A DNA stretch of 63,125 nt, counting the filler, from Stramenopiles sp. TOSAG23-6 (Eukaryota), in assembly GCA_900128565.1 (NCBI GenBank). It is 26 parts of 26 records of this genome, joined end to end, with 100 filler letters (N's around TTAATTAATTAA, not from the genome) between each part and the next. Parts side by side here need not be neighbours in the genome. Positions count along the whole stretch, not along the records: positions 9,777 to 12,119 come from LT638111.1; 25 more parts are not named here. One strand, written 5' to 3'. Under the pieces are notes generated by a model. The model did no database searches. It worked only from the letters and a program-made list of their open reading frames with translations, and was not told the DNA's origin. The first letter of the stretch is position 1; each line of letters begins with the position of its first letter. The translations under genes were made by a program, and so were the position numbers. This document shows positions 9,832-11,183 of the stretch, piece after piece.

Positions 9832-11183
9832 CGTGTTTATTCACCAAAAGACGAGCAAGAGACAGTATTTGCGGATACTAAGAAACTTTGTTCTTCAGCT
9901 GCAGATGGGTTCAACGTATGTATATGTATGTTTTCAAAATTAATTTTTTTACCTAAAGTTTTGTTTTTTTGTAAAACAAATTTTGTACCTAATGTGAGTT
10001 TTTTTGCTAAAACCATATTTTTTCACAATGCATTTGCGTACGGTCAAACGGGCTCAGGAAAAACATGGACAATGATGGGTGATCAAACAACTGAAGATGG
10101 ATCATTACTTGGAGTACGTTTTCATCATGAATTTCAATTTTGTTTTCTTTCAAAATTCTGTACCTAACGATTTTGTTTTCAAATATTTTTTCACAATACA
10201 CGTCGCACCTCGTTCTGCAGAGGAGATATTCCGAATTGTAGAAAAAAATGCAGATAAATTCGATTATAAAATTTCTACATCACTTTACGAAATTTATCGT
10301 GGACAAATTGTTGATTTGTTAATGACAAAGAAACAAAGAAAGAAATTTAAAAAAGATGGAAAAAAACTGGAACCGCACTTGGATGAGGATGGGAGAGTGG
10401 AAGTTGACGGAGGCACAGTAGTACGTGTGGAAACATCAGCTGCATTAAGAGAGATGACAAACAAAGGAATGAAAACACGTCATACAGGATCAACTGCAAT
10501 GAATTCCGAGAGTTCTCGTTCACATTTGGTTCAGATGATTTTTATTGAAGCTTTAAATCTCGCAAATAAACGAACTCTAATGGGGAAGTTGACATTAGTT
10601 GACTTGGCTGGTTCCGAAAGGGCGGATAAAACTGGAGCAACTGGTGACACAATGAAGGAGGCTCAAGCAATCAATAAAAGTCTCTCATGTCTAGGTAATG
10701 TTATCTCTGCTTTAACGACAAATTCCAAACATGTACCGTATAGAGATTCTTTACTTACACAGTTAATGAGAGATTGTTTAGGAGGTAATGCGAAAACACT
10801 GATGTTTGTCAATATCAGCCCAGCAGATTACAATGCATATGAAACATTTTCTTCGTTGAATTTTGCTGCACGTTGCAAATTAGTCAAGAATAAGTACGTT
10901 TTCAAAATTAAATTTCAAATTTATCTTTTTTTCGTAGTATATTGTGTACCTAACAAATTTTCAAGAAAATATCTTTTTACAGTACAGAGCCGCTGCATCG
11001 GTCGAAAGCGCCGCAGTGAAGAAATTGAAGAAACAGTTACAACAGTTAAAAAAGAAACAAATTACTACAACTGATAAAGATAACCCTAACCCTAATGAGA
11101 GAATAGTCAAAAAAAGACCACCCGGAAGTAGACCAGTAGGGTCTATCCCAGTGCGTCCAGGAACTGTTCGTGTACGGAATTAA
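9832..11183 (+). CDS. Kinesin-14 (C-terminal motor, KCBP-like); exons 9832-9925, 10034-10113, 10202-10893, 10988-11183; 5' partial
   Basis: DGFNVCIFAYGQTGSGKT, NSESSRSH, LVDLAGSER, HVPYRDSLLTQLM and LGGNAKTLMFVNISP; the motor is followed by a short basic helix. Confidence 0.93.
9926..10033 (+). mobile_element. Introner-like GT-AT intron (108 nt)
   Basis: ATA T|GTATG...CACAATGCAT|TT GCG restores the conserved CIFAYGQTGSGKT. Confidence 0.9.
10114..10201 (+). mobile_element. Introner-like GT-AC intron (88 nt)
   Basis: GGA|GTACG...CACAATACAC|GTC GCA CCT CGT restores GVAPR (kinesin G-x-x-P-R). Confidence 0.85.
10894..10987 (+). mobile_element. Introner-like GT-AG intron (94 nt)
   Basis: AA|GTACG...GTACCTAAC...ACAGTACAG|A GCC gives in-frame KNKAAASVES. 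Confidence 0.8.

Follow-up and report, generated by a model that had tools for sequence, protein, structure and literature searches.

The 63,125-nucleotide (nt) stretch analysed here, called the window, is made of pieces of the genome assembly GCA_900128565.1 of Stramenopiles sp. TOSAG23-6, a marine stramenopile. It contains a kinesin gene interrupted by three homologous introns which, when cut so as to restore the protein, end in AT, AC and AG. These introns are members of a very abundant family of near-identical introns, distributed genome-wide and not specific to the kinesin gene. They probably represent, with a likelihood of roughly 0.6, a recently expanded, introner-like family of spliceosomal introns, with a Y-A-N 3' site and GT-AT as the normal termini.

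The kinesin gene and its introns

The gene lies on the piece 9777-12119, where three homologous copies of the intron (9926-10033, 10114-10201 and 10894-10987) are recognized by direct reading of the sequence.

9777-9831, plus strand: 3' part of a truncated family intron, cut by the contig start and ending in ...CCAAAATGCAT / ...AAAATGCAT at 9831; the exon resumes after it with CGT GTT TAT (RVY)
9832-9925, plus strand: kinesin exon, RVYSPKDEQETVFADTKKLCSSAADGFNVCI plus one base (sequence and tblastn)
9926-10033, plus strand: family intron 1, GT-AT, GTATGT...AATGCAT; GTATGTTTTC...CACAATGCAT
10034-10113, plus strand: kinesin exon 2, with the P-loop FAYGQTGSGKTWTMMG
10114-10201, plus strand: family intron 2, GT-AC, GTACGT...AATACAC; GTACGTTTTC...CACAATACAC
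10202-10893, plus strand: kinesin exon 3, main part of the motor domain (Pfam Kinesin, E=1.3e-72), with RNA-library contigs on it
10894-10987, plus strand: family intron 3, GT-AG, GTACGT...AGTACAG; GTACGTTTTC...ACAGTACAG
10988-11183, plus strand: last kinesin exon, to the TAA stop (sequence and RNA-library contigs)

After removal of the three introns the protein reads ..GFNVCI|FAYGQTGSGKT.., ..SLLG|VAPRS.. and ..KLVKNK|AAASVE.. across the junctions. Kinesin queries (P0001, P0002, P0003, P0005, P0009 and P0012) were compared to the contig by tblastn, and the three junctions agree with the homologues P0001, P0005 and P0012. In the homologues FAYGQTGSGKT follows ..NVCI, VAPR follows a Gly, and the motor end ..NK is followed by A(V/T)A(A/S)(V/I)E; these readings are the same as those obtained by cutting the kinesin introns as GT..N. 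An earlier, sequence-only reading had described one kinesin gene carrying the same intron with CAT, CAC and CAG ends. The sequences were found where it had placed them, and the comparison with homologues bears out its claim that the first two introns restore motor motifs and the third keeps the frame.

In the following, register indicates the shift, in bases, of both cuts relative to the GT start. Reading of the sequence revealed no GT-AG alternative able to keep the protein for introns 1 and 2 among the AGs near their 3' ends, because these acceptors either break the frame or delete GxxPR. For intron 1, registers 0, -1 and -2 produce identical messenger RNA (mRNA), because the exon flank is AT. 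For intron 2, the same protein is obtained from registers -1 to +2, none of which corresponds to GT-AG or AT-AC, and at the joint 10113/10202 both GGA GTC and GGC GTC fit; a shift of two bases to the left reads CTT GAC GTC, changing Gly to Asp, as had been pointed out from the sequence. In intron 3, two AGs located 3' of the branch motif and upstream of the cut are bypassed.

A telomere-like CCCTAA stretch (11082-11095) is found inside the last kinesin exon, where it is read as NPNPN.

Size and common plan of the family

The window contains the internal core GTACCTAAC 43 times, where 0.12 would be expected, and the observed number is reached in 0/100 shuffles; a looser form, GTACCTAA, occurs 51 times. 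Copies are found in unrelated genes, including those for kinesin, eIF4E, a tRNA synthetase, a KNTC1-like protein and a RabGAP-TBC protein, and in other open reading frames (ORFs). One more copy is present in an independent metagenome contig, L001, as ACAT|GTATGT..ATACAT|GG. This was the sole locus detected when the metagenome was scanned with the family core, and a similar scan with a 23-letter stretch of kinesin exon 2 gave 0 matches. No clear non-family intron was seen in the genes read, which do not amount to a survey of all ORFs.

Twenty complete copies could be aligned over their full length (alignment A1). They start with GTAYGTTTT, in which GTAYGT is near-invariant, followed by a variable T-rich part and by (C)GTACGAAATTT(T/C)GTACCTAAC; the 3' part is composed of a T-run, (C)CAAAAT or CACAAT, and four further bases. 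Position -2 is A in 20/20 copies and position -3 is C in 16, T in 3 and A in 1, while the last base is T in 15, C in 2, G in 2 and A in 1; these columns are therefore described by Y-A-N. The sequence-only reading had proposed an acceptor that is effectively YAN, with a last base free to vary. The first part stands for the family; as to the last base, upstream exons mostly end in AT (17/24 copies), and its variation may have arisen by neutral drift away from an ancestral CAT instead of the four bases being used equally. Given a final T in roughly four copies out of five, GT-AT is the norm of the family, and intron 3 with its AG belongs to the minority. The earlier interpretation, largely right, was in this respect too narrow, the family being genome-wide and AT being its usual end (19/24 copies, see below).

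According to the proposed model, each copy would supply its own 5' splice site, GTAYGTTTT, an internal CGTACGAAATTTT-GTACCTAAC module, the end of which is like the yeast TACTAAC branch site, and a T-rich run followed by CA(A/C)AAT-R-Y-A-N. The excised stretch would begin with the G of GTAYGT and include one base beyond the invariant A, mostly T, otherwise C, G or A, at a 3' site Y-A-N which is mostly CAT. The putative branch-site motif GTACCTAAC is conserved across the family and resembles TACTAAC with one extra C. The cuts would be made by a U2-type spliceosome, with the AT, AC and AA ends used in vivo in the GT register.

Two elements, 62795-62886 (plus strand) and 2445-2531 (minus strand), form a sub-family in which the 5' half is common and the 3' module differs (..AAATTTCGAATTTAATTTTTTTTACGATATAT), the end being again AT. 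CCCTAA repeats are located just after the 5' site of two family introns, at 7559-7575 and at about 49400-49425.

Reading frames and terminal dinucleotides

Removal was evaluated on 24 copies, 23 from the window plus L001, which are complete at both ends and flanked on each side by open frames. Copies interrupted by a contig end or a run of N were left out, as for example those at 72, 2478, 7217, 9672, 12232, 24432, 26686, 31607, 34148, 36579, 36642, 38881, 58405, 60844 and 63083, together with two extra copies of a triplicated contig and the chimeric copy 1860-2098. Similarly left out were copies without clear ORFs on both sides (7407, 12664, 13774, 14185, 20176, 41655, 44008, 44089, 46081 and 60416); for several copies of this kind the contigs are too short to judge whether they lie outside genes.

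When the first base of GTAYGT and the last base homologous across the family were taken as the limits of each copy, the longest flanking frames were in phase in 22/24 cases (binomial P=4e-9, compared to a one-in-three chance). The independent tests are 21 of 23, because the end of copy c40807 was set from the frame itself. The phase miss of the eIF4E intron is explained by an 8-codon last exon, which matches P0121 and P0122. In this register the 3' ends are AT in 19 copies, AC in 2, AG in 2 and AA in 1. As regards the features of U2-type introns, GT within the 5' hexamer is found in 22/24 copies, the other 2/24 starting with AT, and AG at the 3' end in 2/24.

Examples from genes other than kinesin are the following.

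4169-4261, plus strand: family intron in a Glu/Gln-tRNA synthetase (GluRS) gene, splitting PEPSGYLH|IGHVKA exactly, with TACAT at both junctions
11354-11449, minus strand: family intron in the eIF4E gene, GTACGT...CACAATACAT; without it the conserved C-terminus is recovered as GM|RAQQYYEV
24875-24966, minus strand: family intron in a KNTC1-like gene, GTATGT...ATACAT; flanking frames of 593 and 143 codons in the same phase
36793-36910, minus strand: GT-AA family intron, ending in ...AAAATACAA
58872-58986, plus strand: family intron, GTACAT...AGTACAT, with exon flank TC

The GluRS junction spans the HIGH motif and its residues match those of homologues. The eIF4E gene, identified by Pfam on the opposite strand of the kinesin piece, reads ..SGM|RAQQYYEV across the junction, to be compared with ..SGMRTQAYYEV in P0121 and ..SGMRTQQYYEV in P0122.

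Cut register and RNA data

The frame test fixes the removed length and not the register, because an equal shift of both cuts keeps the frame. An exon flank other than AT, from which the register could be read directly, is present at 58872-58986, 36793-36910, 59370-59479 and 7553-7662. The informative copies favour register 0 (GT..AN). In copy c58872, whose neighbouring open frames measure 46 and 131 codons, registers -1 and -2 put a TGA in frame, and therefore only GT-AT, or the mRNA-equivalent register +1, is open to it.

The kinesin piece is present in public seawater metagenomes and metatranscriptomes and in two small 2015 runs. RNA runs were compared as assembled contigs, X11 yielding a single contig; the parts not covered are uninformative either way. 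Kinesin exons are covered by RNA-library contigs, and one of these, from a poly(A) metatranscriptome (X10 record 8, 204 nt), lies on 10988-11179. Its twelve letters before 10988 correspond to 10882-10893 of the window, i.e. 10893 is joined to 10988. The RNA contig therefore reads AAT AAA GCC and not AAT AGA, the junction that the sequence-only reading had named as contradicting its own proposal. The GT-AG register of intron 3 is confirmed by this joint. An RNA joint is thus seen for the AG copy of the earlier interpretation; the predicted removal of AT and AC copies rests on protein homology and reading frame.

RNA-library contigs from other family copies diverge from the kinesin locus exactly after 9831 and exactly before 10114, which marks the borders of the unit and likewise favours register 0, and unspliced family sequence is abundant in the RNA libraries. 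Over the 3' half of the family intron (9777-9855), two RNA runs show a summed word depth of about 11,000 and a poly(A) run one of 845, the kinesin exons being at about 3-5; unspliced RNA, stable introns or DNA carry-over could produce this depth.

A-first variants

Three copies carry an A in place of the first G.

40725-40807, minus strand: A-first variant, AT-AC, ATACGT...CACAATATAC
40976-41130, minus strand: second A-first variant, ATATGT...CACAATACAG; AT-AG, or AT-AC with both cuts two bases to the left
12300, minus strand: third A-first copy, ATACGTTTTCAT; 3' end absent

The phases of the two complete introns are fixed, because the 168-nt exon between them (contig 38999-41326) is open in one frame. 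In the first of them the cut of ATACGT..CACAATATAC falls in the same A1 column as the usual family end. A first-base A together with a last-base C is the classical compensating pair of the first-last nucleotide rule. The A-first/C-last pairing is thus a hint of spliceosomal chemistry, two cases not being a test. The variant 40807-40725 pairs its first A with a last C in the same way as AT-AC introns of both U12 and U2 type.

Alternative explanations

The strongest competing explanation, although an unlikely one, is that most copies in fact have AT-AC, a known terminal pair, with the register misplaced by two bases (ATGTATGT...ATAC|AT), the AT repeated at both junctions creating a spurious GT-AT. 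An AT closes the upstream exon in 17/24 copies, both complete A-first variants permit AT-AC, and in nine copies (GluRS, c8366, c9173, eIF4E, c13393, KNTC1, TBC, c59643 and L001) register -2 leaves the mRNA unchanged. However, AT-AC fits at most 11/24 copies and is impossible in any protein-keeping register in 13/24. Intron 1 would become AT-GC, c6121 AT-TC, c38581 and c62795 AT-AT, and intron 2 GA-AC, with Gly replaced by Asp; in c58872 the AT-AC register leads to a stop codon, and the RNA-library contig of intron 3 excludes a leftward shift. Moreover, GTAYGT is conserved as a block, whereas the two preceding bases are variable. A somewhat smaller chance is given to removal by a divergent minor (U12-like) spliceosome, a machinery which accepts both AT-AC and GT-AG introns and is lax at the last base. 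U12-type introns are tolerant at this position, and the family has a very conserved 5' site and branch motif without a strict AG, combining GT or AT starts with AC, AG, AT and AA ends. The U12 consensus is RTATCCTT at the 5' site and TCCTTAAC at the branch, 10-26 nt from the 3' end, but the family has GTAYGTTTT and TACCTAAC; in the copies where the core is the last CTAA match, the branch motif is about 33-47 nt from the cut. The same differences in motifs and distance set the family apart from U12-type AT-AC introns, and AT-AC termini cover only a minority of copies.

Excision might also be non-spliceosomal, with base pairing between the intron ends as its guide, a mechanism put forward for nonconventional introns in euglenids and in some diplonemids. 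This is improbable. A CAT flank lets CATGTAT and ATACATG pair, and the stem is formed in 2/6 folded copies (GluRS and KNTC1), but it is absent in kinesin introns 2 and 3 and in eIF4E, and the consensus fold reaches only -0.14 kcal/mol. The conserved borders look like spliceosomal signals, euglenozoan introns having no conserved borders and a stable structure that joins their ends, and the organism is a stramenopile, not a euglenozoan. Slightly less credit still is given to the idea that non-AG copies are never removed, either because they sit as dead insertions in pseudogenes or because a fragmentary single-cell assembly has produced them. Fragmentation and some chimerism are seen in the assembly, where contig 1-2344 joins exons of two genes via family copies, and unspliced family sequence is plentiful in the RNA libraries; yet 19/24 copies end in AT within intact conserved genes whose frames continue exactly across them, the same arrangement is found in the independent contig L001, and RNA-library contigs cover the kinesin exons.

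A number of observations also count against a spliceosomal family using Y-A-N in the GT register. The U2-type spliceosomes studied so far strongly disfavour a last base other than G, and a scan of the window with Rfam found nothing. Copy c58551 breaks the phase rule without explanation. In 14/24 copies the exon flank and the intron end are both AT, so that registers 0 to -2 produce the same mRNA. No RNA joint 9925/10034 or 10113/10202 was found in four runs over the kinesin contig, and, this being the one contig covered, none of the copies ending in AT, AC or AA was observed as spliced RNA. Finally, the X10 joint could derive from the DNA of an intron-less allele present in the RNA library, which would define the same unit.

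Candidate determinants of the 3' cut

Several ways of setting the 3' cut were considered and rejected. Use of the first AG does not hold, since AGs between the branch motif and the cut are skipped in 7/24 copies, with two such AGs in intron 3. A fixed ruler from the branch motif is likewise rejected, the branch-to-cut spacing varying between about 33 and 47 nt. End-to-end pairing was evaluated by folding six copies singly, with z-scores from -2.6 to +1.2: the end stem is formed in GluRS (-1.5) and KNTC1 (-2.5), and no end pairing is seen in intron 2 (+0.2), intron 3 (+1.0) and eIF4E (+1.2). The consensus fold has five pairs only, between GUAYG of the 5' site and a branch-adjacent YGUAC (-0.14 kcal/mol). 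Pairing between exon end and intron end was also discarded as a guide, because copies with a flank other than AT show no consistent complementary change. The local module formed by the T-run, CA(A/C)AAT and R-Y-A-N is the remaining candidate for setting the cut. As a separate matter, copy 1860-2098 was rejected as an AG-ending case, since the end homologous to that of the family is ...GGTAT and the exons on either side come from different genes.

Origin and relation to known introns

The family may have expanded in the manner of a small transposon, favouring sites that end in (C)AT. When the exon AT is included, ATGTAT(G)TTTT faces AAAATACAT, forming an imperfect inverted repeat of about 10 nt with one indel. 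Five copies with flanks TT, TT, AC, TC and CT keep AT at the intron end; single substitutions since insertion would explain these equally well. Both a small transposon duplicating an AT target and a CAT-ending element preferring (C)AT sites fit these observations.

Introner elements, known from Micromonas, Aureococcus and other organisms, are near-identical introns found in unrelated genes, which carry their own splice signals and are suspected to spread like transposons (PMC11282704, PMC12130899). The family resembles them in having many near-identical introns in unrelated genes. Those of Aureococcus have canonical splice motifs and repeats of constant length (PMC7789003), and in Micromonas the duplicated target gives rise to the second splice site (PMC11282704). 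Unlike introners with canonical sites, 22/24 family copies lack AG and the terminal inverted repeats are short and imperfect; in addition, the AT target duplication is inseparable from an intrinsic AT end.

The nearest parallels are the tunicate Fritillaria borealis and Amoebophrya, both of which have variable 5' ends too, unlike the family. In Fritillaria, transposon-derived introns have non-AG 3' ends, with AG-AC and AG-AT predominating (PMC11282704), and it is believed that an adapted U2 spliceosome removes them, divergent U2AF paralogues being implicated (PMC11282704, PMC13326754). They lack GT at the 5' end as well and vary widely at their termini, whereas the stramenopile family, from another lineage, keeps GTAYGT and a branch motif strongly conserved and breaks the rule at the last base alone. 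The introner elements of Amoebophrya, also a marine protist, are repeated and non-canonical, with direct repeats of 3-5 nt at the junctions and inverted repeats at the ends (PMC7789003). They have no clear terminal dinucleotide signature and form hairpins of 8-20 nt, in contrast to the dominant GT..CAT and the lack of a consistent hairpin in the family.

Nonconventional introns of euglenids and hemistasiid diplonemids depart genome-wide from GT-AG (PMC12621601, PMC6221363), and non-canonical introns have been predicted in single-cell diplonemid genomes (PMC12621601). These introns have no conserved borders and extensive end pairing, the reverse of what is found in the family, where borders are conserved and pairing is not consistent. 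A diplonemid affiliation of the present genome is ruled out by protein evidence, the nearest labelled proteins being from stramenopiles. No earlier description of GT-AT introns in stramenopiles was found in the literature searched, and the available main text of two single-cell stramenopile genome papers (PMC5778133, PMC5269757), supplements aside, makes no mention of non-canonical splice sites.

Assembly and neighbouring sequences

The 63-kb window is a chain of contigs of about 2.3 kb, separated by linkers N44-TTAATTAATTAA-N44 (e.g. 2345-2444 and 9677-9776). Many contigs start or stop inside a family copy, as expected of an assembler at a high-copy repeat. Contigs 48700-51021, 51122-53443 and 53544-55865 are near-identical, with single Ns at the same offsets and the same two family introns. 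The region 1354-2191 looks chimeric: two family copies stand between an exon for succinyl-CoA ligase alpha (..ECKIGIM) and one for an ABC transporter, and link them.

An intact ORF for an FKBP-TPR-cyclophilin protein (41859-43361, minus strand) is identical to P0131 at 436/437 residues in the aligned blocks. P0131 is a protein model labelled as marine stramenopile, and the remaining named matches are from stramenopiles as well, oomycetes and diatoms among them. P0131 lacks four in-frame blocks, each of 13-17 residues, which lie inside conserved domains of the intact ORF; they look like introns wrongly predicted in the public model. At 18085-18130 (minus strand) a PH/RED-like gene shifts frame after ..LLKKVRQD, by either a one-base indel or a short odd intron, and no frame-keeping GT-AG solution was found there. 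Contigs 14663-17005 and 26847-29177 have a strong A/G skew and long open frames on both strands, and are probably low-complexity repeats.

Significance

Gene models built on the GT-AG rule will be wrong in genomes of this kind, P0131 being an example, and a repeated intron fragments and chimerises assemblies. Few signals in eukaryotic gene expression are as constant as the AG with which nuclear introns end. The few lineages known to depart from it, Fritillaria, Amoebophrya and the euglenozoans, have become test cases for a spliceosome adapting to invading elements. A mostly AT-ending family suggests an unusually tolerant splicing machinery, splicing having so far been seen for the AG copy alone. 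There is about an even chance that a marine heterotrophic stramenopile lineage harbours thousands of young, transposon-like introns removed at Y-A-N, mostly C-A-U, with strict 5' and branch sites and with the requirement for a last-base G relaxed or replaced. With textbook-like 5' and branch signals and the last base alone changed, the family would cleanly isolate the problem of second-step recognition and, if the proposed reading is true, its A-first/C-last, AG, AC and AA variants are a ready-made mutational series for the first-last base rule.

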